The notes beneath the pieces are model-generated. The model did no database searches. It saw only the letters and a list, made by a program, of their open reading frames with translations, and had not been told where the DNA came from. A stretch of DNA of 64,000 bases from Micromonospora sonneratiae. Lineage in GTDB: Bacteria; Actinomycetota; Actinomycetes; Mycobacteriales; Micromonosporaceae. The stretch spans positions 13,551 through 77,550 of the forward strand of contig NZ_JBHTMP010000017.1 of NCBI RefSeq assembly GCF_042679305.1, given 5' to 3'. Positions 30,997 to 58,074 of the stretch are shown one piece after another. Both the position numbers and the translations under genes were made by a program. How positions within the stretch are numbered: the first letter of the stretch is position 1; the number at the start of each line of letters is the position of its first letter.

Positions 30997-33005
30997 TGGA
31001 AGTAATCACCACCGGGCTCGGCGTTCTGTTGGGTGTCATCCTTCTTGTCGTCATCTGCATCATGTTCATCGTCAGCCGACTGTTCCGGAAGGTGGAGCAG
31101 GGCAAGGCCCTGATCATCTCCAAGGTCCGGCGGGTCGACGTGACGTTCACCGGCGCGGTGGTCCTGCCGGTGCTGCACAAGGCCGAGATCATGGACATCT
31201 CGGTGAAGACCATCGACATCGAGCGGACCGGCAACGAGGGCCTGATCTGCCGGGACAACATCCGGGCCGACATCCGGATCACCTTCTTCGTGCGGGTCAA
31301 CAAGACCACCGAGGACGTGGTCAAGGTGGCTCAGGCGATCGGTACGGCCCGGGCCAGTGACCGGGAGACCCTGCAGGAGCTGTTCAACGCGAAGTTCTCC
31401 GAGGCGCTGAAGACGGTCGGTAAGCAGCTGGACTTCGTCGACCTCTACACCAAGCGGGACGAGTTCCGCGACCGGATCATCCAGGTCATCGGCACCGACC
31501 TCAACGGTTACAGCCTTGAGGACGCCGCCATCGACTTCCTGGAGCAGACCCCGCTGGCCCAGCTCGACGCCGCCAACATCCTGGACGCGCAGGGCATTCG
31601 CAAGATCACTGAGCTGACCGCGATCGAGCACGTCCGTACCAACGAGTTCCAGCGCAACGAACAGAAGGAGATCACCCGCCAGAACGTCGACGCCCGGGAG
31701 GCCATCCTGGAGCTGGAACGCCGGCAGGCCGACGCCGAGATCAAGCAGCGCCGCGAGATCGAGACGATGCGGGCCAGGGAAGAAGCGGAGATTTCCCGGG
31801 TACGGGCCGAGGAGCGGCTCAAGGCCGAGTCGGCCGGTATCCGTACCGACGAGCAGCTCGGCGTCCAGCAGGAGAACCTGGCCCGGGAGATCGCCGTCGC
31901 GGAGAAGAACCGGGAACGGGTCATCGCGATCGAGACCGAGCGGATCGAGAAGGACCGGCTGCTGGAGGTCATCGCCCGGCAGCGGGAGACCGAACTCTCC
32001 ACCATCGCCAAGGACAAGGAGGTGGAGGCGGAGAAGCGGTCCATCGCCGAGGTGGTCCGGGAGCGGATCGCGGTGGAGAAGACGGTCGCCGAGCAGGAGG
32101 AGAACATCAAGCGCCTGCGGGTGGTCGAGGAGGCCGAGCGGACCCGGCAGGCGGTGGTGATCCAGGCCGAGGCGGAGGCGCAGGAGAACCTGGTCAAGGA
32201 CATCAAGGCCGCCGAGGCGGCCGAGCAGGCGGCCAAGCACCGGGCCCGGGAGCAGATGGTGCTGGCCGAGGCCCGCCAGCAGGCGGCCGAGTTGGAGACC
32301 CGGGCGAAGATCCGGCTGGCCGAGGGCCTACAGGCCGAGGCGGCTGCCGCAGGCCTGGCCGAGGTGCAGGTACGCGAGCGGGGTGCCGAGGCGATCGAGC
32401 GGGTCGGCCGGGCCGAGGCGATCGTCGAGCGGGAGAAGGCGCTGGCGGTGGCCGAGGCGGTACGGGAGAAGCTCAAGGGCGAGGCCGAGGGTCTGACCGA
32501 GAAGGCAGCCGCGATGGCGGCCCTCGACGACGCGACCCGTGACCACGAGGAGTACCGCCTGCGGTTGGAGGCGGAGAAGGAGATCCGCCTGGCCGGCATC
32601 GACGTGCAGCGGCAGGTCGCCGAGGCGCAGGCCAAGGTGGTGGCGGCCGGCCTGGAGAAGGCCAACATCGACATCGTCGGTGGCGACACGGTCTTCTTCG
32701 ACCGGCTGATGGGCTCGATCACGCTCGGCAAGAGCGTCGACGGTTTCGTCCAGCACTCCGACGTCGCCCAGACCCTGGCGCGGCCGTGGCTGGACGGATC
32801 CTCGAACTTCACCGACGACCTGGGCAAACTGCTCGGCGCGCTGAACACCGCCGACGTGCAGAACCTCACCGTCTCCGCGTTCCTGATGCAGCAGATCAAG
32901 GCCGGTGGGTCGAACGCGGACAAGCTGCGGGAGCTGCTGACCGCCGCGCAGCGCCTCGGTGTGGCGGAGGCGCCGGTGGCCGCCCTCACCGGCGCGAAGA
33001 AGTGA
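30996..33005 (+). CDS. Flotillin / SPFH (band-7) family protein
   Basis: N-terminal TM hairpin. SPFH core KALIISKVRRVDVTFTGAVVLPVLHKAEIMDISVKTIDIER...RADIRITFFVRV. About 270 aa of A/E/R-rich coiled coil. Flotillin C-terminus. Confidence 0.9.
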   Translation: MEVITTGLGVLLGVILLVVICIMFIVSRLFRKVEQGKALIISKVRRVDVTFTGAVVLPVLHKAEIMDISVKTIDIERTGNEGLICRDNIRADIRITFFVRVNKTTEDVVKVAQAIGTARASDRETLQELFNAKFSEALKTVGKQLDFVDLYTKRDEFRDRIIQVIGTDLNGYSLEDAAIDFLEQTPLAQLDAANILDAQGIRKITELTAIEHVRTNEFQRNEQKEITRQNVDAREAILELERRQADAEIKQRREIETMRAREEAEISRVRAEERLKAESAGIRTDEQLGVQQENLAREIAVAEKNRERVIAIETERIEKDRLLEVIARQRETELSTIAKDKEVEAEKRSIAEVVRERIAVEKTVAEQEENIKRLRVVEEAERTRQAVVIQAEAEAQENLVKDIKAAEAAEQAAKHRAREQMVLAEARQQAAELETRAKIRLAEGLQAEAAAAGLAEVQVRERGAEAIERVGRAEAIVEREKALAVAEAVREKLKGEAEGLTEKAAAMAALDDATRDHEEYRLRLEAEKEIRLAGIDVQRQVAEAQAKVVAAGLEKANIDIVGGDTVFFDRLMGSITLGKSVDGFVQHSDVAQTLARPWLDGSSNFTDDLGKLLGALNTADVQNLTVSAFLMQQIKAGGSNADKLRELLTAAQRLGVAEAPVAALTGAKK

Positions 33006-33012
33006 CGCCCGG

Positions 33013-36000
33013 GTGGCTGAGTTCGTGACCGGGTCCACCACCGTCGAATCGGGCGACCAGAACCGGACCGCCGACCAGGCGGGGATGGACGCCGGCACCT
33101 ACGACGTACTCCGGAACCGGCTGGCGGAACGCGCCACGGAGCTGGCCCGCCGGGCCGAGCAGCTCAACGCCCGACGGCTGGACGTCTTCGGCGGCACCGA
33201 GCTGCGGCTGCTCGGCACCGAGCGGATCCGTACGCAGCACAACTGCGTACCCCGCGACATCGTGTCGGTCGGCGGGCTGATGCTGTTCGGCTACAACGTG
33301 TTCATCGGGCTGAAGCCCGAGACGACGGTGGACGACGTCTTCTCGCTGCACCGGTTCACCCGCGAGGCGGCCCCGGACACCGGCGGCGGGGAGGTCTTCC
33401 GGTTCGCCGAGGTGGACCCGGTCGAGCTTCCCGAACTGCTACGTGACCAGCAGTTCGAGCGCGACTTCGGCGAACTCTACCGGTACTACCGGGAGACCCG
33501 GCTGCTGCAACTACGGCGGACCGACGGCCGGCTGCTGGCCATCTTCCAGACCGGTCCGCGTACCGAGGACATCCGGGTCCTGCGCTGGCGGGTCGACGCC
33601 GACGGGACGATCGGCTACCTCGACAACCGGGGCGAGCGCGACCACGTGTTCCCGCCCGCGCACGACTTCGAGTGGATCGAGACCACTCGTGAGGACCACG
33701 TGCTCGGTCGGCACCCGCACATCTCGATCCGGGGCGAGGTGTTCGTCGAGACGGTCGGCGGCAACCTCACCGTGAAGATCGAGAACAACACGGAGACCGG
33801 CGAGGGCATCTACGGCGAGCCGGTGGACGAGCCGCTACAGAGCCTGGCCGACGCCGACATCCACTACGCCGTCGTCGGTCCGCTGATCCTGCTCCGGATC
33901 CGGCCGTACAAGGAGACCGAGTGGCGGCACCTGGTCTTCAACACGACCACCAAGACGGTCGTACGTCTGGACGGCATCGGACAGGCCTGTCAGCGGTTGC
34001 CGGAGGACCACGGGATCATCTTCCCCGGGGGCTACTACCTGGCCACCGGGGTCAGCCGGACCTTCGACACGGTGGTCGACGACCTCGAGTTCGAGCGGGT
34101 CATCCGGTCCACCAACGGGGAGGACGTGCTCTACGTCTTCCATGCCCGCAAGGACGGTCGCAGCCTGCTGCTGCCGTACAACGTGATCCGTAAGGAGGTC
34201 GCCACCCCGGTTCCCTGCCACGGCTACTCGCTCTTCGACGACGGCACGCTGGTGGTGTTCCGGGCGACCTCCGAGGAGCCGACCCGGGTCCACCCGATGC
34301 AGATCTGGCAGACCCCGTACCTGTCCGACACCTACTCCGCCGCCCAGCCGGTCGGCAGTGGTCCGTTGGAGCGGGTCGGTAACGCAGACCTGGTACGCGG
34401 CATCTCGGACTGCCTGTCGGTGGCCCGGATGGTGGGCGAGATGACCCCGGCGGTCGGGGTGTTCGAGGCACTGATCGCCGGGTGCACCCGGGCCTTCGAC
34501 CACTACCACTGGCTCGGCGACCCGGAACTGGACGACCTGGGCGGGCCGCTGGCCGAGGTCCGGGCGATCGCGCAGCAGGTCCTGGACGAGTTCGAGAAGG
34601 TCCAGTCGCTCACCGCACAGGCAGCGGCGACCCTGGAGGAAACCGCCGCCCGGATCGCCTCCCTGGTCCGCCGGGTACGCGGCGAAGCGCCGCTGACCGC
34701 CGACGACTGGGTACGCCAACTCGCCGGGCTGCGTCAGGCGCAGGGCCAGTTGGTGACCCTGCGTGAGCTGCGGTACGTCGACGCGGCCCGGATCGACCGG
34801 CTGGCCGCCGAACTGGCCGAGGAGTTGACCGCCGCCGCCCAGCGTGCGGTCCGGTTCCTCCAGCAGGAGGACGCCTTCGCCGACTACCACGTCGAGGTCG
34901 ACCGGTTGGCCACGGCCGCCGGCGCGATCAGCACCGTGGCCGAGGCCGGGCCGGTCCGGGACCGGCTGGCCGAACAGGCCGAAGGGCTACAGATCGTCAC
35001 CGAGGTGGTGGGCAGCCTCGACATCGCCGACGCGACCGTACGGACCGGCATCCTGGAGCAGGTCGCCGAGGTGCTGGGCGGGGTCAACCGGGTCCGGGCC
35101 ACGTTGGACGGCCGTCGGGCGCAACTGCTGGCGGCAGAGGGGCGGGCCGGCTTCGCCGCCGAGTTCGCCCTGCTCGGGCAGGCGGTCACGGGTGCGCTGG
35201 CGGTGAGCGACACCGCCGAGAAGTGCGACGAGCAGCTGGGCCGGCTGCTGCTCCAGGTGGAGAACCTGGAGTCCCGCTTCGGCGAGTTCGACGACTTCCT
35301 CGCCGAGTTGGCGACCAGACGTACCGACATCTACGAGGCGTTCTCGTCGCGCAAGCAGGCACTGCTCGACGAGCGGGCGCGCCGGGCCGACCGGCTGGTG
35401 TCCTCGGCCGAGCGGATCCTGGTCAGCGTACGGCGTCGGGTCGGCGGGCTGCGTTCCCTCGACGAGGTGAACACCTACTTCGCCTCCGACCCGATGGTCA
35501 CCAAGCTGCGCGGGGTGGCCGACGAGCTGCGTACCCTGGGCGACCAGGTGCGGGCCGACGAGCTGGAGGGGCAGGTCAAGGCCGCTCGCCAGGAGGCCGG
35601 CCGGACGCTGCGTGACCGGATCGACCTCTACCGCGACGGTGGTGACACGATCCGGTTGGGCCGGCACGCCTTCGCCGTCAACACCCAGTCGATCGACGTG
35701 ACCCTGGTTCCGCACGACGGGCGGATGATGGTCGCCATCACCGGCACCGACTACCGCGCACCGGTACGGGACGAGGCGTTCGAGCAGACCCGGGCGTTCT
35801 GGGACCAGTTGCTGGTCTCCGAGTCCGCCGAGGTGTCCCGGGCGGAGTACCTGGCCACGTCGATCCTGGCCGAGGCGGAAGCCGGCACGTCGGGACTGAC
35901 CCTCGACCTGCTGCACGAGACGGCGGTCGGCCCGGCCGGGTTGCGCGACCTGGTCCGCCGCGCGGCGGAGGGGCGGTACGACGAGGGCTACGAGCGGGGT

Positions 36001-38151
36001 GTGCACGATCACGACGCGGCCCTGATCCTCGATGCCCTGCTGCGTCTGCACACCGCGGCCGGGCTGCTGCGTTATCCGCCCGGGGCGCGGGCCGCCGCCC
36101 AGCTCTTCTGGGCGTACGGCACCGGGGACACGGCCCGGGCCGGGTGGTCGAGACGGGCCGCTTCCCTGGGCCGGGCCCGTGCCCGGTTCGGCCGTACGGC
36201 CGCCGTCGGTGAACTGTGCGCGGAACTGGCCGACGCGGCTACCGCGTACCTGCGCGAGGTCGGCCTCGACGACCAGTTGACCGCCGTCGACCTGGCCGGG
36301 GAGTACCTGTTCGAGGAGCTGGCGCGGGAATCGTCGGCCGGCATGGCTGCCGGGACGCCACGCGGGTTCGTGACCGGGGCCGGGGCGCGGACGCTGCTCG
36401 ACCGGTTCCGTCGGACGCTGGGCGGGCCGCAGTCCAGGTCGACCAAGGAGTTCGACGACGACCTGCGGGCGCTCGGTGACGACCTTGCCGCCCGGCACCA
36501 GTTGGTCGTCGCCTGGCTGGAGGCCTACCTGGGCACCGTCCCGGCCGGCGCTGCCGCCGACCCGGGAGCCGGTGTCGCTGCTGATCCGGGAGCTGGCGTC
36601 GCCGCCGATCCGGGCGGTCTCTCCGCGTACGACCTGCCGGAGGCGGTCGCCATCGAGCTGTGCGGTGCCAGCCTGCCCCGGTACGAGTCGGCAGCCAACC
36701 TGTCGACGGAGGTGGGTGGGCTGTTGGCCACCCATCGGCGCATCGTCGGGTCGAACCTGACGCTGCGACTCGACGAGACCCTGGCCCGGACCCGACGGTT
36801 CCGCAACGAGCAGGTGCCGGCCTACCGGGCCTACCAGCAGCGCCGTAACGAACTGGTGGCCCGCGAACGGCAGCGGTTGCGGCTGGAGGAGCACCAGCCG
36901 AAGGTGATGAGCGCCTTCGTCCGTAACCGGCTGCTGGACGAGGTCTACCTGCCGTTGATCGGTGACAACCTGGCCCGGCAACTCGGCGCGGTGGGTGACG
37001 GCAAGCGGGTGGACCAGATGGGTCTGCTCCTGCTGATCTCGCCACCCGGCTACGGCAAGACGACCCTGATGGAGTACGTCGCCAGCCGGCTCGGCCTGGT
37101 GTTCGTCAAGGTCAACGGTCCGGCACTGGGCTCGGCCGTCACCTCGCTGGATCCGGCCGAGGCGCCCAACGCGACCGCCCGCCAGGAGGTCGAGAAGATC
37201 TCGTTCGCGCTGGAGGCGGGCAGCAACGTGCTGCTCTACCTGGACGACATCCAGCACACCTCGCCCGAGCTGTTGCAGAAGTTCATCTCGCTGTGCGACG
37301 GGCAGCGTCGGATGGAGGGGGTGTGGGACGGCCGCACCCGCACGTACGACCTGCGGGGCAAGCGGTTCGCCGTGTGCATGGCCGGCAACCCGTACACCGA
37401 GTCGGGGCAGCGCTTCCGGGTGCCGGACATGCTGGCCAACCGGGCCGACGTGTGGAATCTCGGTGACGTGCTCGCCGGGCGGGACGAGATCTTCGCGTTG
37501 AGCTACGTCGAGAACGCGCTCACCGCCAACCAGGTGCTGGCCCCGCTGTCCACGAGGGAACGCGGCGACGTGGAGCTGCTGGTCCGGCTGGCCCGGGGCG
37601 ACGAGACGGTACGGGCGGACCAGTTGAGTCACCCGTACTCGCCGGTCGAGTTGGAGCAGATCGTCTCCGTACTGCGCAAGCTGCTGCGGGTCCAGCAGGT
37701 GGTGCTGACCAACAACCAGGCGTACATCGCGTCGGCCGCGCAGTCGGACGCGTCCCGTACCGAACCGCCGTTCCAGTTGCAGGGCTCCTACCGGAACATG
37801 AACAAGCTGGCGGAGCGGATCGTCCCGGTGATGAACGACGAGGAACTCGAGATGGTGATCGACGACCACTACCGGGGCGAGGCGCAGACCCTGGCCTCGG
37901 GGGCCGAGGCGAACCTGCTCAAGCTGGCTGAGTTGCGTGGCCGGCTCACCGCCGAGCAGGCCCGCAGGTGGGCCGAGGTGAAGGCCGGTTACCTGCGGGC
38001 CCGGGCGCTCGGCGGGGACCGGGACGATCCGGTGAGTCGTGCGGTCGGGGCACTCGGCCTGTTGGCCGACCGGGTCGGCGACGTGGAGTCGGCGATCCAG
38101 CAGGTGGGTGCCGGGGTACGCCGGGTCGAGGTGGGCGGAGCGGCCGGGTGA
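33013..38151 (+). CDS. Giant (~1710 aa) protein: beta-rich N-terminal domain, long helical region, C-terminal AAA+ ATPase
   Basis: Starts 8 nt after the flotillin stop (GTG 33013; alternatives GTG 33025 and ATG 33085). Walker A LLLISPPGYGKTTL (~aa 1343). Walker B VLLYLDDIQH (~aa 1407). AVCMAGNP sensor-1-like. High GC3 throughout. Confidence 0.85.
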   Translation: MAEFVTGSTTVESGDQNRTADQAGMDAGTYDVLRNRLAERATELARRAEQLNARRLDVFGGTELRLLGTERIRTQHNCVPRDIVSVGGLMLFGYNVFIGLKPETTVDDVFSLHRFTREAAPDTGGGEVFRFAEVDPVELPELLRDQQFERDFGELYRYYRETRLLQLRRTDGRLLAIFQTGPRTEDIRVLRWRVDADGTIGYLDNRGERDHVFPPAHDFEWIETTREDHVLGRHPHISIRGEVFVETVGGNLTVKIENNTETGEGIYGEPVDEPLQSLADADIHYAVVGPLILLRIRPYKETEWRHLVFNTTTKTVVRLDGIGQACQRLPEDHGIIFPGGYYLATGVSRTFDTVVDDLEFERVIRSTNGEDVLYVFHARKDGRSLLLPYNVIRKEVATPVPCHGYSLFDDGTLVVFRATSEEPTRVHPMQIWQTPYLSDTYSAAQPVGSGPLERVGNADLVRGISDCLSVARMVGEMTPAVGVFEALIAGCTRAFDHYHWLGDPELDDLGGPLAEVRAIAQQVLDEFEKVQSLTAQAAATLEETAARIASLVRRVRGEAPLTADDWVRQLAGLRQAQGQLVTLRELRYVDAARIDRLAAELAEELTAAAQRAVRFLQQEDAFADYHVEVDRLATAAGAISTVAEAGPVRDRLAEQAEGLQIVTEVVGSLDIADATVRTGILEQVAEVLGGVNRVRATLDGRRAQLLAAEGRAGFAAEFALLGQAVTGALAVSDTAEKCDEQLGRLLLQVENLESRFGEFDDFLAELATRRTDIYEAFSSRKQALLDERARRADRLVSSAERILVSVRRRVGGLRSLDEVNTYFASDPMVTKLRGVADELRTLGDQVRADELEGQVKAARQEAGRTLRDRIDLYRDGGDTIRLGRHAFAVNTQSIDVTLVPHDGRMMVAITGTDYRAPVRDEAFEQTRAFWDQLLVSESAEVSRAEYLATSILAEAEAGTSGLTLDLLHETAVGPAGLRDLVRRAAEGRYDEGYERGVHDHDAALILDALLRLHTAAGLLRYPPGARAAAQLFWAYGTGDTARAGWSRRAASLGRARARFGRTAAVGELCAELADAATAYLREVGLDDQLTAVDLAGEYLFEELARESSAGMAAGTPRGFVTGAGARTLLDRFRRTLGGPQSRSTKEFDDDLRALGDDLAARHQLVVAWLEAYLGTVPAGAAADPGAGVAADPGAGVAADPGGLSAYDLPEAVAIELCGASLPRYESAANLSTEVGGLLATHRRIVGSNLTLRLDETLARTRRFRNEQVPAYRAYQQRRNELVARERQRLRLEEHQPKVMSAFVRNRLLDEVYLPLIGDNLARQLGAVGDGKRVDQMGLLLLISPPGYGKTTLMEYVASRLGLVFVKVNGPALGSAVTSLDPAEAPNATARQEVEKISFALEAGSNVLLYLDDIQHTSPELLQKFISLCDGQRRMEGVWDGRTRTYDLRGKRFAVCMAGNPYTESGQRFRVPDMLANRADVWNLGDVLAGRDEIFALSYVENALTANQVLAPLSTRERGDVELLVRLARGDETVRADQLSHPYSPVELEQIVSVLRKLLRVQQVVLTNNQAYIASAAQSDASRTEPPFQLQGSYRNMNKLAERIVPVMNDEELEMVIDDHYRGEAQTLASGAEANLLKLAELRGRLTAEQARRWAEVKAGYLRARALGGDRDDPVSRAVGALGLLADRVGDVESAIQQVGAGVRRVEVGGAAG

Positions 38152-43264: not shown

Positions 43265-44575
43265 TCACCGGGACTGGCTGACCGGCACCGTCCCGAGCGG
43301 CACCGTCCCGACCGGCACCGGCGAGTCGGCCGGGGCCGGGTCCAGCAGTGGCCCTCTCACCGACTTGTCCTCGGCCGTGGGGCCGTGGGAGGTGAGCACC
43401 ACCGGGCAGGCCAGCTCGTCCTCGACCGTGGCGACCCAGTCGCGGGGTGGTTCGTCGTACCCGGGTCGGGAGCGCAGCAGTCGACCGGTCAGCGCGGCCT
43501 GCCGGTCCAGGTCCCCGACCGGACCCGGTGCGAGCCGGTCCGTCCAGTCGTAGCGGCGACAGATCCGTAGCTGCGGACCGGCCAGGTCCAGGTGCGTCAG
43601 CGCCAGTCCGTCCACACCGCCGGCCACCTCCAGCGCGTACCGGTGGGCCACCGCGTCGAAGTGCCCGAACCGGAACCGGCCCTGCCACGGGTTGGTCGGG
43701 TTGCGCGGGTCGGCGAACGGCAGGGTCGGGTCCTCGGTCACCAGTGGCCCGGGACCGTGCCGGGTGGTGGCGGTACGCAGCACGCCGAGTCGGGTCGCCG
43801 TACCCGACATGCCGGCCTCCGCCAGCAGCCGCTCGGCGTTGGTGAACGTCGTCGTGCTCCACGTGGTGTACGGGTGGAAGCCGTGCCACTCGTCCAGCAG
43901 CACGCCCTGGGCGCCCTCGAAGACACAGGTCCCGGACCGCAGCAGCGTCGTCAGGTGATTGCCATCCACTATGGACACGCGCTCGGCGAAGGCGGTGAAG
44001 GCGGTGACACAGTCGTCCACCGGTGGGGCGTCCAGCGGGCCGAGTTCGGCGGTGAGCCGGTCACGCAGCGCGGCCAGCCGCTGGCGCAGCACGGCAGGCG
44101 TGACGCAGTCGCCCACCCGGGGTGCCTCGCCGGGGTACGCGAGGTCGTACGCCATCGTCTCGCCCACCCCCATGCCGCAGGAGCCGTGCCGGTCGGCTCC
44201 CCGGGCGACCTCGCGGGCCCGGTTCGCGGCCCGGTGGTACGGCGTGGTCAGCAGCGCCGCCCCGTCCACGGTGAGCCGGTCGAGCGCGTCCGGCACCCCG
44301 ACGGCGGCGAGGTGGTCGGCCTCGACGGCCAGCGCCAGCGGGTCGACCACCATGAACCGGGACAGGTGGGTTCGCACACCGGGTCGGAACGTGCCCGCTC
44401 CGAACTGCGCGAAGGTGTGCCAGCGGCCGTCGGGCAGGACGACGTTGTGCGCCGCCTGCCCGCCCCCGTTGAAGCGGACCACCGCGTGGACCGGCCGTGT
44501 CGCACACAGCCAGTCCACGACGGTGCCCTTGCCGGCGTCCCCGTACCCGAGGTCGACCACGATCACATGGCTCAC
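43265..44575 (-). CDS. Divergent adenylosuccinate-synthetase-family paralogue
   Basis: GTG 44575 overlaps the vWA stop (GTGA). DLGYGDAGKGTVVD (P-loop), GGGQAAHNV, SCGMGVGETM, LTHLDLAG align with the purA motifs in this window but are substituted. Confidence 0.85.
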   Translation of the reverse strand: MSHVIVVDLGYGDAGKGTVVDWLCATRPVHAVVRFNGGGQAAHNVVLPDGRWHTFAQFGAGTFRPGVRTHLSRFMVVDPLALAVEADHLAAVGVPDALDRLTVDGAALLTTPYHRAANRAREVARGADRHGSCGMGVGETMAYDLAYPGEAPRVGDCVTPAVLRQRLAALRDRLTAELGPLDAPPVDDCVTAFTAFAERVSIVDGNHLTTLLRSGTCVFEGAQGVLLDEWHGFHPYTTWSTTTFTNAERLLAEAGMSGTATRLGVLRTATTRHGPGPLVTEDPTLPFADPRNPTNPWQGRFRFGHFDAVAHRYALEVAGGVDGLALTHLDLAGPQLRICRRYDWTDRLAPGPVGDLDRQAALTGRLLRSRPGYDEPPRDWVATVEDELACPVVLTSHGPTAEDKSVRGPLLDPAPADSPVPVGTVPLGTVPVSQSR

Positions 44576-45534
44576 AGCCGGGTGATCCGATCCGCGTCGG
44601 CCCGGACGGCGGGCAGCGGTGACACCGTGGTCGCCCGCCGGTTGGTACCCACCCGGGCGAGTGCCTTCGACACCGTCCTGGTGGTGGCCGAGCCCGCCTC
44701 GTCGAGGTCGTGCAGGCCGGTGTCGAGGTCGACGGCACCCTCGGCGAGGCCGATGGTGAGCGCGATCGTCTCGCAGACCGCGTTCAGGTCGTCCAGTTCG
44801 AGGACGTTCTGACCGAGCAGGTCCCGCCAGAAGTCCAGCACCCGCGCGTCCCCGGCGTACCCGGTTCCGGCCGGCAGCAGGTAGTAGGTGTCGTACCTAC
44901 GGGTCACCTCGTGGATCAGGTGGGCCAGCGGAACGGCCTCGGTCAACTCGTCGCCGATCAGCCTGCTCACCTCGCGCGGCTTGACCTCCGGGTAGGCCAG
45001 TTCGTCGCCGATGATGAACAGGTAGCCGCGGTGTCCCCGCCGCTCGAAACAGTCGATCGAGGTGTGCCGGGCCATGAAGTACAGGGCCAGCTCGTACGAC
45101 TCGGTCATCTGCCCGCCGCCGCCGCCCTCCAGCACGATCCGGCCGAGGTCGTCGTCCATCCGGTTGTCGGACTCGAACTGCCCGACCTGGAGCGGTACCC
45201 GGTCGCAGGTGGCGTCGCCGATCGCGCCGAACATGATCTGCGGATCGCGGGCGTACCCCTTGCGTTGCAGCAGGCCGAGCAGTTGCGGGAGCTTGGTCTG
45301 GAGCACCCGGGGTATGCGACGCATCGAGCCGGTGACGTCGAAGAGGACGGCGATCGCCAACGACTCGGGGTGTTCGGCCGAGTCACGGCTCTCCCGTGCC
45401 GCGCCGGACGGGTCGAGCGCCGGGTGGACCGTACGCGCCCCGCTGTCGCTGTAGGCGAAGGCGCTGGTGCCGGTCGACCGCCGATAGCGGTCGGCCGCGT
45501 CGTACACGTCGGTGGACCAGGTTCCACTACCCAT
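44572..45534 (-). CDS. von Willebrand factor A (vWA) domain protein
   Basis: ATG 45534 follows GGAGG. MIDAS VLFDVTGSM. Downstream GAIGD and FIIGDE strands are typical of a vWA Rossmann fold. Confidence 0.8.
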   Translation of the reverse strand: MGSGTWSTDVYDAADRYRRSTGTSAFAYSDSGARTVHPALDPSGAARESRDSAEHPESLAIAVLFDVTGSMRRIPRVLQTKLPQLLGLLQRKGYARDPQIMFGAIGDATCDRVPLQVGQFESDNRMDDDLGRIVLEGGGGGQMTESYELALYFMARHTSIDCFERRGHRGYLFIIGDELAYPEVKPREVSRLIGDELTEAVPLAHLIHEVTRRYDTYYLLPAGTGYAGDARVLDFWRDLLGQNVLELDDLNAVCETIALTIGLAEGAVDLDTGLHDLDEAGSATTRTVSKALARVGTNRRATTVSPLPAVRADADRITRL

Positions 45535-45583
45535 GTCAGCCTCCAGGTCGGGTTGGGAAGGATCGAATCCAGCGGACTCGAAG

Positions 45584-46573
45584 TCAGTGGGACGAGTCGG
45601 TGGTCAGGGAGAAGGGACGGAAGACGCGCGGTCCGTACAGGCGCTCGAGCACGTCGTCCAGCTCGCCGAGCAGCCGCCAGGCGTCGTCGGGTCGGGCGCG
45701 CAGCGCCCGTTGGGTGCAGCCGTCGGCGAAGGCCCGCAGCGCCCGAGGGATGCGGTCGCCCATCAGGTACGTCATGCAGCGCGTCGCCATGGCGATGTCG
45801 GTGCCCGGACCGGGCCGGTGTCGCGCCGGCACCTCGGGCGGGTACCAGTCGGCGTACGCCGGTACCAGCGCCGGGACGGTGTCCTCGCCGATCACCGAGT
45901 AGCACCAGTCGACGAGCACCACACCGTGCTCGGTGGGCTCGATGAGTACGTGGTCGGGCAGCACCGCGCCGTGCACCACGCCGGCCCGGTGAGCGAGACC
46001 GAGCGCGACCAGCAGCCGCCGCCACATCCAGGCCGCGTCCCGGGGGTCGAGTCCGTTCGGGTAGGCCCGGTGGACCTCGGCGAGGCTGTGCAGGTCGGGC
46101 GCGGTGGCGACCACGTTGATCACGCGTCGGGCGGCGGTCGCCGGGTCCCGGTGCCGGAACGTCTCGACCAGCCGGGGCACGTACGGCAGATAGCGGGGGT
46201 CGCCCCGCTCGGCCAGCGTGCGCAGGGCGGTGGCCTCGCGTTCCATCAGGTCGTTGTTGGTCGGGTCGCGGGGGAGTTTGAGCCAGCGGCCCGACCCGAC
46301 GTCGTACAGGTCGGTCAGGTCGCCGACGTGTACGACGGCACCGAGGCGGTACGTCCCGACGATGGTGACCGCGTGCCGGGCCCGCCAGCGGGTGGTGACC
46401 CGGATGAACGCTTCGGTGGCGGCGGCCCGGTCGGCTGCGGTGGCGGTGCCGAGCCGATCCGGGTGCAGGGCGGTGACCAGCCGGCGGTACTGGCGGTCCG
46501 GCGCGACGCCGCCGAACAGTTCCTCGTCGGTGCGGGCCGTCGTGACGTGGCGTAGCGCCTCGACGAGGTTCAC
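45584..46573 (-). CDS. J-domain (HPD) fused to APH/protein-kinase-like domain with altered catalytic motif
   Basis: GTG 46573 overlaps the Nudix stop (GTGA). YRRLVTALHPDRLG (J-domain HPD). Kinase-like VVHGAVLPDHVLIEP and VVLVDWCYS (HGD replaced by HGA; DW in the DFG/IDW position). Confidence 0.75.
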   Translation of the reverse strand: MNLVEALRHVTTARTDEELFGGVAPDRQYRRLVTALHPDRLGTATAADRAAATEAFIRVTTRWRARHAVTIVGTYRLGAVVHVGDLTDLYDVGSGRWLKLPRDPTNNDLMEREATALRTLAERGDPRYLPYVPRLVETFRHRDPATAARRVINVVATAPDLHSLAEVHRAYPNGLDPRDAAWMWRRLLVALGLAHRAGVVHGAVLPDHVLIEPTEHGVVLVDWCYSVIGEDTVPALVPAYADWYPPEVPARHRPGPGTDIAMATRCMTYLMGDRIPRALRAFADGCTQRALRARPDDAWRLLGELDDVLERLYGPRVFRPFSLTTDSSH

Positions 46574-47322
46574 CGGATCGTCTCCTCCCGCGCCGGGCGC
46601 AGCAGCGCCGGATGCAGGAGTCGGGCGTCGCCGGCCCGGTAGAGCCGGGCCCGGGGGCCGCCGCGCGCCCCACCGCGTTCGGTGGTCACGCCGGTGCTCT
46701 CCACGAAGCCGGGCACCGAGAGCACCTTCCGGTGGAAGTTGCCGGCGTGCAGCGCATGCCCCCACACCGTCTCGTAGACGGCCCGCAGCTCACCGATGGT
46801 GAACTCGTCACCGAGGAAACGGGTGGCCAACGGGGTGTACTCCAGCTTGGACCGGGCCCGCTCCAGGCCGTCGGCGACGATTCGCTCATGGTCGAAGGCG
46901 AGTTGCCGGGTGGGCAGGTCGGCCACGGGTAGCCAGGCCGCGTCCTCGGCGTCGGTGCCGGCGGCGGGATCGGGCAGGTCGGGTGCGAACGCGAGATGGG
47001 CGACCGACACCACCCGCATCCGTGGGTCGCGGTCAGGTGCGCTGTAACTGGCCAACTGCTCCAGGTGTACGCGTCGCAGCCGCTCGCCGCCGAGCCCGGT
47101 CTCCTCGGCCAACTCGCGCCGTGCGCAGGCGGCCAGGTCCTCGTCCGGCCGTACGAAGCCGCCGGGCAGCGCCCAGAAACCCGAGTACGGCGGTTCGGCG
47201 CGACGGATCAGTAGCAGGTGCAGCGCGTCGTCACGGATGGTCAGCGCGACCACGTCGGCGGTCACCGCGACCGGGGGAAACGCCTGTGGGTCGTACGCGG
47301 CGAGGAAGTCCTCTTCGGTCAC
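46570..47322 (-). CDS. Nudix hydrolase + C-terminal winged-HTH (NrtR-type regulator)
   Basis: GTG 47322 follows GAGGAG. Intact Nudix box GFVRPDEDLAACARRELAEETGL. C-terminal FTIGELRAVYETVWGHALHAGNFHRKV is typical of the NrtR DNA-binding domain. Confidence 0.85.
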   Translation of the reverse strand: MTEEDFLAAYDPQAFPPVAVTADVVALTIRDDALHLLLIRRAEPPYSGFWALPGGFVRPDEDLAACARRELAEETGLGGERLRRVHLEQLASYSAPDRDPRMRVVSVAHLAFAPDLPDPAAGTDAEDAAWLPVADLPTRQLAFDHERIVADGLERARSKLEYTPLATRFLGDEFTIGELRAVYETVWGHALHAGNFHRKVLSVPGFVESTGVTTERGGARGGPRARLYRAGDARLLHPALLRPAREETIR

Positions 47323-47339
47323 AGCGCCAGTTCTCCTCG

Positions 47340-47359
47340 TTCTGAGAAAATCTCAAGAA
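47340..47359 (-). promoter_or_regulatory. AT-rich near-palindrome upstream of the Nudix-regulator operon (candidate operator)
   Basis: TTCTGAGAAAATCTCAAGAA (arms TCTGAGA / TCTCA(A)GA), about 35% GC in a ~72% GC genome, 18-37 nt upstream of the GTG start. Confidence 0.4.
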
Positions 47360-47406
47360 GAGAATAACTGGTGATCGTTTCGGCCACCAGTCCCCGGTAC
47401 GGTCGA

Positions 47407-47961
47407 CTACCTCGTGAACGGAGACCTCGGAAGCTGCGGCAGGGGTGGCCGATCACCCGCCTCGTCGATGACGGTGATCTGCCACCGGACGACCGGGGCT
47501 GCCAGCATCCGGCCGGCGTACCAGCCGAGGGTGCCGGCGGCGATGAGGATCGCCCCGGAGAGGTAGTAGACGGTCAGGTCGCCGAGGTCGACGGTATGGG
47601 CGACCCGGTTCAAGATGATCAGCAGCCCATCCCGATCCAGACAGTGCGGACCGCGGACCTCATACCGTCCGAAGTGTGTCAATGCAACCCCCAGGCTGGC
47701 ACCGGTGCCAGCCTGGGGAAACGCATCCTCAGCGAGGCAGTGGTTCGAGCGCCTCGCCGGCCGACTCTGCTCGCCAGCCGCCAGGGGCCCGTGCCCCGGC
47801 ACGAGGATGTCGAACACCTCGGACCGCATGCGTGAGCAGACCGAGGGCGGCGCATCCGGGTCGACGGTGCCGCTCCGCCAGCCCTGCCACATTCCGAAGG
47901 CCGCGACGATCAGGGCACCGGCGGTCAGCACGGCCAGCCGGGTCCTGCTCTCCGTTCCCAT
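47407..47961 (-). CDS. Hypothetical protein with N- and C-terminal TM helices
   Basis: LAVLTAGALIVAAFGMW and YYLSGAILIAAGTLGWYAG flank a ~110-aa Cys-containing domain. No known motif recognised. Confidence 0.5.
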   Translation of the reverse strand: MGTESRTRLAVLTAGALIVAAFGMWQGWRSGTVDPDAPPSVCSRMRSEVFDILVPGHGPLAAGEQSRPARRSNHCLAEDAFPQAGTGASLGVALTHFGRYEVRGPHCLDRDGLLIILNRVAHTVDLGDLTVYYLSGAILIAAGTLGWYAGRMLAAPVVRWQITVIDEAGDRPPLPQLPRSPFTR

Positions 47962-56649: not shown

Positions 56650-58074
56650 GTGACGAGTATCCCGAACGTCCTTGCCAACCGGTACGCCTCGGCAGAACTG
56701 GCCGCCCTCTGGTCGCCGGAGGAGAAGATCCGGATGGAACGGCGGCTCTGGCTGGCCGTACTCCGGGCGCAGCGGGATCTCGGCATCGCGCTGCCCGACG
56801 GGGTGGTCGAGGCGTACGAGCGGGTGCTCGACCAGGTCGACCTAGCCTCGATCGCGGCCCGGGAGCGGGTCACCCGGCACGACGTGAAGGCGCGGATCGA
56901 GGAGTTCAGCGCGCTGGCCGGGCACGAGCACATCCACAAGGGCATGACCTCGCGGGACCTCACCGAGAACGTCGAGCAGCTACAGGTACGCCGCTCGCTG
57001 GAGCTGATCCGGGACCGGGTGGTCGCCACCCTGGCCCGGCTGGCCCGCCTGGCCGTGGAGCACTCCGACCTGGTGCTGACCGGCCGGTCGCACAACGTCG
57101 CGGCGCAGGCCACCACGCTGGGCAAGCGGTTCGCGTCGGCGGCCGAGGAACTGCTGATCGCGTACGAGCGGCTGGACGACCTGATCGACCGGTACCCGTT
57201 GCGTGGCATCAAGGGGCCGGTCGGCACCGCCGCCGACCAGCTCGACCTCTTCGACGGCGACCCGGAGAAGGTCGCCGAGCTTGAGCGCCGGGTCGCCACC
57301 CACCTCGGCTTCTCCCGGGTGCTGGACAGCGTCGGCCAGGTCTACCCGCGTTCGATCGATTTCGACGTGGTGTCCGCGTTGGCGCAGACGGCCGCCGCCC
57401 CGTCGTCGCTGGCGACGACCATCCGGCTGATGGTTGGCCAGGAGCTGGCCACCGAGGGCTTCAAGCCGGGGCAGGTCGGCTCCAGCGCCATGCCGCACAA
57501 GATGAACACCCGGTCCAGCGAGCGGGTCAACGGCTTCGCGGTGATCATCCGGGGTTACCTGTCGATGATCGGCGAGCTGGCCGGTGACCAGTGGAACGAG
57601 GGCGACGTCTCCTGCTCGGTGGTCCGCCGGGTGGCGCTACCGGACGCCTTCTTCGCCGCCGACGGGCTGTTCCAGACGTTCCTCACCGTGCTCGACGAGT
57701 TCGGCGCGTACCCGGCGGTGATCAACCGCGAGTTGGACCGGTTCCTGCCGTTCCTGGCGACCACGAAGATCCTGGTCGCGGCGGTACGTCGGGGCGTCGG
57801 CCGGGAGGTCGCCCACGAGGCGATCAAGGAGCACGCGGTCGGCGTGGCGCTGGCCATGCGGGAGCAGGGGGCGACCGAGAACGACCTGTTCGACCGGCTG
57901 GCCGCCGACGAACGGCTGGGCCTGACCCGTACCGAGATCGACAAACTGGTGGCCGACCGGGCCGACTTCGTCGGCGCGGCTCCGGCGCAGGTACGGGCGG
58001 TCGCCGGGCGGGTCGCCAACGTGGTCGCGGCGCACCCGGAGGCAGCCGCCTACCAACCCGCCCCGATCCTCTGA
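56650..58074 (+). CDS. purB: Adenylosuccinate lyase
   Basis: LANRYASAELAALWSPE, GRSHNVAAQATTLGKR, GSSAMPHKMNTRSSE signature. Confidence 0.95.
   Translation: MTSIPNVLANRYASAELAALWSPEEKIRMERRLWLAVLRAQRDLGIALPDGVVEAYERVLDQVDLASIAARERVTRHDVKARIEEFSALAGHEHIHKGMTSRDLTENVEQLQVRRSLELIRDRVVATLARLARLAVEHSDLVLTGRSHNVAAQATTLGKRFASAAEELLIAYERLDDLIDRYPLRGIKGPVGTAADQLDLFDGDPEKVAELERRVATHLGFSRVLDSVGQVYPRSIDFDVVSALAQTAAAPSSLATTIRLMVGQELATEGFKPGQVGSSAMPHKMNTRSSERVNGFAVIIRGYLSMIGELAGDQWNEGDVSCSVVRRVALPDAFFAADGLFQTFLTVLDEFGAYPAVINRELDRFLPFLATTKILVAAVRRGVGREVAHEAIKEHAVGVALAMREQGATENDLFDRLAADERLGLTRTEIDKLVADRADFVGAAPAQVRAVAGRVANVVAAHPEAAAYQPAPIL

Follow-up and report, generated by a model that had tools for sequence, protein, structure and literature searches.

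Which function can be expected from a bacterial protein that carries, one after the other, the J-domain of an Hsp70 co-chaperone and a kinase fold devoid of its catalytic aspartate? This question is raised by a gene lying in a 64,000-nucleotide stretch of DNA from Micromonospora sonneratiae, a high-GC actinomycete (the whole stretch is hereafter called the window; its GC content is uniform, at about 70%). The gene encodes a 329-amino-acid protein, termed here J-domain pseudokinase (J-PK), which is 100% identical to the M. sonneratiae protein P0001. The interpretation favored here, with somewhat more confidence than doubt, is that J-PK is a non-catalytic Hanks-type pseudokinase which, through a functional J-domain, acts as a dedicated co-chaperone or adaptor of DnaK (Hsp70). 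The features of the gene on which the argument is built are the following:

45584..46573, minus strand: J-PK gene, 329 amino acids plus stop (from the open reading frame, the sequence, and the starts of the homologues)
46373..46573, minus strand: J-domain, residues 1-67, with helix I at 3-12, helix II at 25-36, the HPD loop, and helix III at 46-67 (structure model and profile)
46457..46465, minus strand: HPD codons cac ccg gat, residues 37-39 (read from the sequence)
45599..46351, minus strand: Hanks-type pseudokinase domain with a eukaryotic protein kinase (ePK) fold, residues ~75-325
46277..46279, minus strand: Lys99 codon, equivalent of the beta3 (VAIK) Lys (PknA alignment)
46235..46237, minus strand: Glu113 codon, presumed alphaC Glu (family conservation and model helix 104-123)
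45950..45973, minus strand: degenerate catalytic loop HGAVLPDH, residues 201-208 (PknA alignment)
45902..45910, minus strand: DWC, equivalent of DFG, residues 222-224 (PknA alignment)

An earlier reading of this DNA from its letters alone (the original prediction) had pointed to this gene, and its open reading frame (ORF), its limits at 45584-46573, and the motifs quoted from it are all found in the sequence. The mechanical ORF spans 45584..46765 on the minus strand; however, the true start is the GTG at 46573, and all homologues begin at this same position. The stop codon is the TGA at 45586..45584.

A J-domain joined to a kinase fold without the catalytic aspartate

The N-terminal region of J-PK includes the segment YRRLVTALHPDRLG, in which the His-Pro-Asp (HPD) motif occupies residues 37-39, as well as the string AFIRVTTRW. 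Scanned as a single sequence, the protein matches the Pfam DnaJ family below threshold (E=0.19). A profile of residues 1-68, made from 22 sequences (alignment A5) and searched against all PDB sequences, matches almost solely J-domain proteins: the best are DNAJC27/RabJ (1.1e-6), CbpA (5.5e-6), and auxilin (1.7e-5), followed by the Thermus thermophilus DnaJ2 (2e-5) and the Escherichia coli DnaJ (~7e-5). When 50 members of the family were scanned one by one, 15 reached Pfam DnaJ at E<0.01, with a best value of 1.4e-6. The AlphaFold2 (AF2) model of J-PK, built from a 50-sequence alignment, has a mean predicted local distance difference test (pLDDT) score of 93.1 and places helices at residues 3-12, 16-20, 25-36, and 46-67, helix II being connected to helix III by a loop that contains HPD. 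The two helices of this characteristic antiparallel hairpin (25-36 and 46-67) have pLDDT values >90, and a bilobal kinase fold follows the J-domain helices. The original prediction had proposed a J-domain with an intact HPD motif, to be abandoned if the N-terminus failed to fold or score as such; fold, profile, and individual Pfam matches agree that it does both.

The residues through which a J-domain touches Hsp70 are also present. The basic and aromatic face of helix II and the Phe of helix III can be aligned to those of CbpA and DnaJ, and among 119 representatives of the family, mutually less than 50% identical, the corresponding positions are Y98/F15 (Y29), R94/K13 (R30), and F101 (F56). 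These three residues are taken here to correspond to Y25, K26, and F47 of DnaJ. The HPD motif is unchanged throughout alignments A1, A2, and A4. Its count in the 119-sequence tally is circular, since these sequences were chosen for HPD; the unbiased figure is that ~93% of the full-length representatives of the 50%-identity clusters keep the motif, and about nine full-length representatives have degenerate versions of it (YPD, HED, SPD, HPY, APR). Given the intact J-domain, J-PK would be expected to recruit Hsp70. As a separate observation, two phage relatives in IMG/VR depart from the common pattern: one has HAD instead of HPD (L094), and another (L095, 296 amino acids) lacks the J-domain yet keeps its vWA neighbor.

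The remainder of the protein is a kinase fold. The segment VVHGAVLPDHVLIEP covers residues 199-213, and VVLVDWCYS covers residues 218-226. As with the J-domain, the single-sequence Pfam scan gives a sub-threshold match (Pkinase, E=0.079), and the single-sequence NCBIfam and PADLOC scans give kinase matches that are sub-threshold or local only; 28 of the 50 family members scanned singly reach Pkinase at E<0.01. A Foldseek search with the J-PK model finds PknA and PknB at E ~2e-10, the top structural matches being all ePKs, and phmmer finds PknA at E 9e-4. The fold is clearly of the Hanks/ePK type, with PknB as its nearest relative. The original prediction had left the choice between an aminoglycoside phosphotransferase (APH)-like and a eukaryotic-like kinase fold; the eukaryotic-like half of this proposal was borne out by the matches to PknA and PknB, while an APH-like fold was discarded (the Pfam APH match is local and scores 20 bits against a cutoff of 23.2, the Asp and Asn are absent, and the top structures are ePKs).

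In the alignment with PknA, H201-G202-A203 falls on HRD, L205 on the catalytic-loop Lys, and H208 on the Asn. The DFG motif corresponds to D222-W-C, the beta3 Lys to K99, APE to YPPE247, and the alphaF Asp to D259. The HMMER alignment sets E113 one helical turn from the Glu of PknA, and its identification with the alphaC Glu, although likely from its conservation, is indirect. The residues found at these positions among the 119 representatives are:

HRD Asp position: A105/G7/S5/C1/N1, Asp in none
Catalytic-loop Lys position: L/T/V/I
Catalytic-loop Asn position: H84/N28
DFG Asp position: D85/G16/N14
beta3 Lys position: K103/R12
alphaC Glu position (E113): E117
alphaF Asp position (D259): D119

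Loss of the catalytic residues is accordingly a property of the whole family. The DFG Asp is kept in 71% of the representatives and missing in 29%, and K99, E113, D259, E247, and R294 are kept across the family. The glycine-rich loop of J-PK reads G84-D85-L86-T87-D88-L89, and throughout the family hydrophobic or polar residues stand in place of its second and third Gly. The phage copies have the form HGA(V/I)xPxN...DWC, in which the Asn is kept and the Asp is absent. The claim that the kinase-like domain lacks the catalytic Asp, with HGA in place of HRD and His208 in place of the Asn, is therefore confirmed and extended to the family, in which the Asp is found in 0 of 119. The same claim was to fall if the Asp were supplied from a shifted position. 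The sole nearby acidic residue of J-PK, D207, was considered in this sense and rejected, as it is variable (E43/D22/P15/S15 being the commonest residues); with no conserved acid near the loop, no shifted Asp is evident among the 119 representatives.

The operon and its phage counterparts

J-PK does not stand alone. In the window it is the second of four genes on the minus strand, which would form a single operon:

47331..47368, minus strand: operator-like tandem palindrome, two copies of TTCTC-N4-6-GAG, just upstream of the first gene
46570..47322, minus strand: Nudix domain plus NrtR-type winged helix, 250 amino acids, first gene of the operon (Pfam NUDIX 1.5e-23, NrtR_WHD 3.5e-11)
45540..45544, minus strand: GGAGG, Shine-Dalgarno sequence of the vWA gene, 5 nucleotides before its ATG (read from the sequence)
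44572..45534, minus strand: von Willebrand factor A (vWA) protein with a metal-ion-dependent adhesion site (MIDAS), 320 amino acids (motifs, fold match of the AF2 core, phrog_2971 at 1.5e-71)
45325..45339, minus strand: MIDAS motif DVTGS, residues 66-70 of the vWA protein
43265..44575, minus strand: divergent PurA-like enzyme (adenylosuccinate-synthetase fold), 436 amino acids (Pfam Adenylsucc_synt 2.7e-58)

Two of the three junctions are overlaps: the TGA of the Nudix gene and the GTG start of J-PK share the letters GTGA, and the vWA stop overlaps the PurA-like start. Between J-PK and the vWA gene there is no overlap but a 49-nucleotide spacer that holds the GGAGG, so that the translational coupling of these two genes by overlap, as originally predicted, does not hold. 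The same prediction was right in calling the downstream gene a vWA protein, and it did not include the PurA-like partner, the Nudix-NrtR-like regulator, or the link to phages.

The family is large, with 2,231 clusters at 50% identity (E<=1e-3), and its names in the databases are inconsistent: "Ser/Thr kinase", "molecular chaperone DnaJ", "J domain-containing protein", "LPS kinase InaA family", and "BUD32". The neighborhood survey began from P0002, a protein 90% identical to the J-PK of the window. The actinomycete set comprises 80 Micromonospora loci (the best 80 by profile search of genome contigs), Micromonospora polyrhachis, Thermomonospora amylolytica, and one Streptomyces; the Thermomonospora and Streptomyces loci, as well as those on uncultured contigs, were found by a separate search for the encoding contigs. 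The operon is present in all 80 Micromonospora loci examined, which were retrieved through their J-PK match, and the order and orientation Nudix, J-PK, vWA, PurA-like is kept in 82 of the 83 actinomycete loci, the exception being cut by a contig end. The genes flanking the operon differ between Micromonospora, Thermomonospora, and Streptomyces, which indicates that the four genes travel as a unit. A prophage or defense-island origin of the chromosomal copy is unlikely, as the GC content is uniform and the flanks are syntenic within Micromonospora. Mean identities to the window in the Micromonospora loci are 82% for the Nudix protein, 70% for J-PK, 78% for the vWA protein, and 81% for the PurA-like enzyme; the faster evolution of J-PK relative to the vWA and PurA-like proteins may reflect an adaptor role.

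The same genes are found in phages. With tblastn, J-PK is detected in 204 phage records, essentially all of them cluster C (Bixzunavirus) mycobacteriophages, in which it is labeled "serine/threonine kinase". For instance, in phage Alice, the cluster C locus studied in detail, gp246 is a J-PK (37% identity), gp247 is the vWA homologue, and gp249 is a "PurA-like adenylosuccinate synthetase" (44% identity); the three are consecutive save for one small ORF. The idea of a conserved fourth small protein between the phage vWA and PurA-like genes was rejected, the intervening ORFs being without blastp homology. The trio also occurs in two uncultured phage-like contigs of 149 kb and 90 kb, and among the IMG/VR contigs with a J-PK relative the vWA gene adjoins it in 9 of 9 and the PurA-like gene is present in 8 of 9. 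The Nudix gene was seen in none of the J-PK phage loci inspected. In terms of PHROG families, J-PK corresponds to phrog_3043 ("kinase"), the vWA protein to phrog_2971 (unknown), and the PurA-like enzyme to phrog_1211. What had been called an unusual bacterial architecture is, then, uncharacterized in the literature, but with 2,231 clusters and about 200 phage copies it is not rare. The 149-kb contig also encodes a second J-domain protein (L084 2146..3072; 308 amino acids, C-terminal DnaJ match at E 1.3e-7, with HPD), so that this phage carries two putative Hsp70-recruiting proteins.

The vWA partner has no match in Pfam, NCBIfam, PADLOC, or PDB sequences, and was placed in this fold because of its MIDAS-like motifs (DVTGS, GGGGGQxTES, and FIIGDE) and of the fold search, in which the core of its AF2 model matches integrin beta-I and alpha-I domains and the A-domains of von Willebrand factor at E ~1e-4. 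Both of its ends are conserved. The N-terminus reads MG[SG]Gx[WYF] in all vWA versions (MGSGxW in the window, 45517..45534), and a C-terminal -xRL-COOH is found in ~110 of 120 Micromonosporaceae proteins (44572..44586 in the window), with a Thr or Ser near the C-terminus. The tail is TDRL in phage Alice and in both uncultured contigs, and -xRL is present in 6 of 9 IMG/VR vWA proteins, including the one that adjoins the pseudokinase without J-domain (L095). In Vibrio and Rhizobium phages, where J-PK is absent, the vWA proteins have other C-termini without the RL tail. The -xRL tail may be a docking motif for J-PK. As a side observation, the Alice vWA homologue (gp247; L086 7095..8879) is 594 amino acids long and contains an intein-like insert of ~257 amino acids, with a weak Hint match and Cys...Asn/Cys junctions, placed exactly before the FI(I)GDE MIDAS strand. 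Inteins commonly occupy functionally critical sites. Judging from two-piece versus one-piece tblastn matches, this insert is present in some cluster C phages only, and an intein in a cluster C1 hypothetical protein appears on the list of Kelley et al. 2016 (PMC5050341).

The PurA-like enzyme falls well below the NCBIfam PurA equivalog (155 bits against a cutoff of 402). Compared to the E. coli PurA, it retains the catalytic D13, K16, H41, and Q224 as well as R303 and D333, and it has changed R143 to G, T129 to C, T300/T301 to W/Q, and K331 to His. In the E. coli enzyme, R143 contacts the 5′-phosphate of inosine monophosphate (IMP) from the partner subunit, T129 contacts this same phosphate, and T300/T301 belong to the aspartate loop. 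The protein is not a housekeeping PurA, and the loss of R143/T129 and T300/T301 suggests that its substrates differ from those of adenylosuccinate synthetase. Identity with PurZ was rejected, as the PurA-type Asp13 is kept and the protein scores 31 bits with NCBIfam PurZ, for which the cutoff is 300.

The operon begins with a gene whose translation has an intact Nudix box (GX5EX7REUXEEXGU), and its product scores 128 bits for the NCBIfam NtrR family, against a cutoff of 400. The tandem palindrome in front of it is AT-rich, has the consensus GTTGTTCTCAcatcGAGaTgTTCTCAganTGAGAGaGA, and is present in 79 of 82 actinomycete loci, including those of Thermomonospora and Streptomyces (three genera); the double motif occurs a single time within the 64-kb window. 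In many loci it lies directly after a TTGGCA...TAAGTT-like promoter. The palindrome is probably the operator of the NrtR-like repressor itself, overlapping the promoter.

Possible roles of J-PK

A conserved J-domain, a dead kinase fold, and the conserved synteny together point to a specialized J-domain co-chaperone. According to this proposal, the pseudokinase domain would be the part that binds the client or acts as a scaffold, its partner being the vWA protein, the PurA-like enzyme, or both; contact might be made by the -xRL tail of the vWA protein or by its MIDAS site. The HPD-containing J-domain would trigger ATP hydrolysis by DnaK and thereby load DnaK on a complex of the vWA and PurA-like proteins, and the loaded DnaK would assemble, activate, or recycle this complex, as an Hsp70-driven counterpart, by analogy, of the MoxR-AAA+/vWA activases. 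On the chromosomes of actinomycetes, the operator would precede a single transcript of these three genes and the Nudix-NrtR-like regulator; large actinophages carry the three-gene core and not the regulator.

Several points weigh against this proposal. The AF2 model of J-PK shows no separate helix IV, helix III running into the linker and the N-lobe, and ~7% of the full-length relatives have a degenerate HPD while some, such as L095, lack the J-domain, which means that Hsp70 recruitment is not indispensable everywhere. The vWA model is of moderate confidence (pLDDT 64 overall, 75-93 in the core). In Vibrio phage phiKT1024 (L087) and in Rhizobium phages such as RHph_TM39 (L088), the vWA and PurA-like genes are paired in the absence of J-PK, so this pair is the core and J-PK an actinobacterial and actinophage accessory. 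Synteny alone is no proof that J-PK binds to DnaK, to the vWA protein, or to the PurA-like enzyme. Finally, the beta3 Lys, the alphaC Glu, and the DFG Asp have been kept, along with the Asn of the phage copies, which fits ligand binding or even an unusual catalysis as well as it fits a pure scaffold.

This last point leads to the alternatives that place the function in the cleft. J-PK could be a ligand-sensing pseudokinase in which the cleft binds a nucleotide or metabolite (for example a product or substrate of the PurA-like enzyme, ATP, or GTP) and gates the access to the J-domain or the binding of a partner. This is rather unlikely, yet it is kept alive by the retention of the beta3 Lys (K103/R12), the alphaC Glu (117/119), and the DFG Asp (85/119) despite lost catalysis, and of the metal-binding Asn in the phage copies (HGAxxPxN...DWC). 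In addition, H201, H216, and D259 are near-invariant, and genes related to nucleotides, NAD, or ADP-ribose (ADPR) are found nearby: hosts have the Nudix-NrtR-like gene, the Rhizobium phage has nicotinamide mononucleotide adenylyltransferase (NMNAT)/Nudix and phosphoribosyltransferase (PRTase) genes, and the Vibrio phage has NADAR. On the other hand, bulky and acidic residues occupy the second and third Gly positions of G84-D85-L86-T87-D88-L89, and such residues in the glycine-rich loop of a kinase usually block the binding of the ATP phosphates; moreover, the DFG Asp is G or N in ~25% of the representatives. Quite improbable is an atypical enzyme on the kinase fold, performing AMPylation or glutamylation (as SelO or SidJ do) or a phosphotransfer by residues other than the usual ones, possibly on one of the two conserved tails of the vWA protein, at its N- or C-terminus. 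SelO and SidJ were regarded as "pseudokinases" and proved to be active; besides, the conservation of the cleft (H201, H208 as H/N, H216, D222, W182, R186) exceeds that of a simple scaffold, and the vWA termini (MG[SG]Gx[WYF] and -xRL-COOH, with the nearby Thr/Ser) are conserved. Nevertheless, no other acidic residue is conserved in place of the catalytic base, 29% of the representatives dispense with the DFG Asp, and no similarity to SelO or SidJ was found, the top structures being ordinary ePKs.

Two further alternatives concern one half of the molecule each. J-PK could be an active Ser/Thr protein kinase of the ordinary kind, its N-terminal extension being decorative, as the NCBI and phage records annotate it ("serine/threonine protein kinase") and as the weak Pkinase, PknB, and PD-T4-6 matches might suggest; with the catalytic Asp in 0 of 119, the HRDxK Lys gone, the Asn mostly His, the glycine-rich loop degenerate, and a bona fide J-domain at the N-terminus, this is extremely improbable. 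Alternatively, the J-like region could be a structural helical cap with a relic HPD that no longer engages Hsp70. The missing helix IV, the sub-threshold single-sequence Pfam match, and the minority of relatives with a degenerate HPD or no J-domain would agree with such a cap, but we consider it very unlikely: the HPD, the basic and aromatic residues of helix II, and the Phe of helix III are kept in proteins of ~35-45% overall identity, the phage copies included, and the conservation of these contact residues among divergent sequences argues for purifying selection on the DnaK-contacting surface.

Beyond the co-chaperone proposal itself, a bolder version of it can be drawn, which is speculative and for the moment to be regarded as unlikely: that J-PK, the vWA protein, and the PurA-like enzyme are an Hsp70-powered nucleotide-modifying machine common to actinomycetes and large phages. 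The PurA-like enzyme, with its altered contacts to the IMP phosphate and to aspartate, would make a non-canonical purine derivative, the purine being possibly ligated to something other than free aspartate, such as the conserved Gly-rich N-terminal tail of the vWA protein. Activation or recycling of the enzyme would fall to the vWA/MIDAS protein together with the pseudokinase and the DnaK that it recruits. In hosts, an ADP-ribose-type signal acting on the NrtR-like repressor would turn the module on, and phages would have captured it to manipulate adenylate or NAD metabolism or to counter NAD-depleting immunity.

If the co-chaperone reading is true, J-PK would be the first bacterial or phage pseudokinase to serve as the client-targeting module of a J-protein, as far as literature searches show, and a new way to direct Hsp70 to a specific target. 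From the point of view of annotation, thousands of actinomycete genes and >200 phage genes bear the labels "serine/threonine kinase", "molecular chaperone DnaJ", "LPS kinase InaA", or "BUD32", none of which fits a J-domain pseudokinase. The NrtR-like regulator in hosts and the NAD/ADPR genes near the phage pair hint at an unexplored purine- or NAD-related metabolism, and the module could bear on the conflict between phages and their hosts. The components are small and soluble, and suitable models are available in Mycobacterium smegmatis with cluster C phages (Bxz1, Alice), Micromonospora, and Streptomyces.

Related systems and neighboring genes

Literature searches on pseudokinases combined with J-domain or vWA proteins, on mycobacteriophage PurA-like enzymes, and on NrtR with adenylosuccinate gave no description of the J-PK protein or module; PMC13622651, a NARP3 paper, a dZ/PurZ preprint, and an oral-microbiome PKL preprint are about other systems. 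PADLOC assigns the genes to no known defense system: the vWA and PurA-like proteins have no match, and J-PK has weak kinase-domain matches only (MkoA 3e-9, PD-T4-6).

Among eukaryotic proteins, GAK also combines a J-domain with a kinase domain (auxilin and GAK are the J-domain proteins DNAJC6 and DNAJC26). GAK has an active kinase at its N-terminus and the J-domain at its C-terminus, separated by PTEN-like and clathrin-binding regions; in J-PK, by contrast, the J-domain is N-terminal, the kinase is dead, and the gene belongs to a bacterial or phage operon. No common descent of the two fusions is evident. The DNAJB1-PRKACA chimera (4wb7), which appears at rank 16 of the Foldseek search aligned over both parts, has the same order of domains as J-PK, an N-terminal J-domain followed by a kinase, but it arose as a somatic gene fusion in humans and its PKA catalytic subunit is active, and the likeness is an architectural coincidence. 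Compared to PknA and PknB, J-PK has no HRD Asp, no catalytic-loop Lys or Asn, no GxGxxG, and no PASTA or transmembrane region, and it has an added J-domain.

Other likenesses concern the operon. In the MoxR AAA+/vWA activases (CbbQ-CbbO, NorQ-NorD, RavA-ViaA, BchI-BchD), a gene for a vWA adaptor lies beside those for a chaperone-type ATPase and the target enzyme; here, and this is an analogy only, the vWA gene is flanked by those for a putatively Hsp70-recruiting J-protein and for a PurA-like enzyme. Membership of this group was rejected, since at the loci inspected the operon contains neither MoxR nor another AAA+ gene; the ATPase would instead be the host DnaK, acting in trans. The TerY-P triad, reportedly described by Anantharaman et al. 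in 2012, is said to consist of the vWA protein TerY, a Ser/Thr kinase, and a PP2C phosphatase, and it resembles the present operon in that a vWA gene lies beside a gene with a Hanks-type kinase fold. This assignment was also rejected: no PP2C is present at any inspected locus, the kinase domain of J-PK is predicted to be inactive, and the partners are PurA-like and Nudix-NrtR-like proteins. The first gene of the operon resembles the NrtR family in having a Nudix domain and a winged helix behind a palindromic operator, but it differs in lying far below the NCBIfam equivalog cutoff and in an operon whose genes are not those of NAD biosynthesis. Among the NrtR regulons that Rodionov et al. 2008 (PMC2330246) list, there is none with a PurA-like, vWA, or kinase gene, and the nrtX-nrtY pair is given there as a two-gene unit, also found in Proteobacteria, with no stated link to the J-PK operon.

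The vWA and PurA-like pair without J-PK lies near NADAR, TROVE, NMNAT/Nudix, and PRTase genes (NADAR in the Vibrio phage; NMNAT/Nudix and PRTase in the Rhizobium phage), and in these proteobacterial phages it is preceded by a conserved Met/Gly-rich protein of 237 and 263 amino acids. Further observations concern the surroundings of the operon in the window. Upstream of it, an ORF of 184 amino acids (47407..47961, minus strand), with a hydrophobic N-terminal segment and no Pfam match, fills a gap of ~680 bp between a MaoC-like gene and the operon; in M. polyrhachis this gap is ~160 bp. An adenylosuccinate lyase gene (purB; Lyase_1 plus ADSL_C) is located at 56650..58074 on the plus strand, with ~10 kb between it and the PurA-like gene. 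M. polyrhachis (L001) has it as well, but in Thermomonospora and Streptomyces it is not near the operon, and its proximity is probably coincidental. Lastly, a protein of 1730 amino acids is encoded at 32959..38151 on the plus strand, with DUF3686 ("ATPase involved in DNA repair", E 2.9e-222), DUF7902, and a C-terminal AAA/AAA_5 domain.

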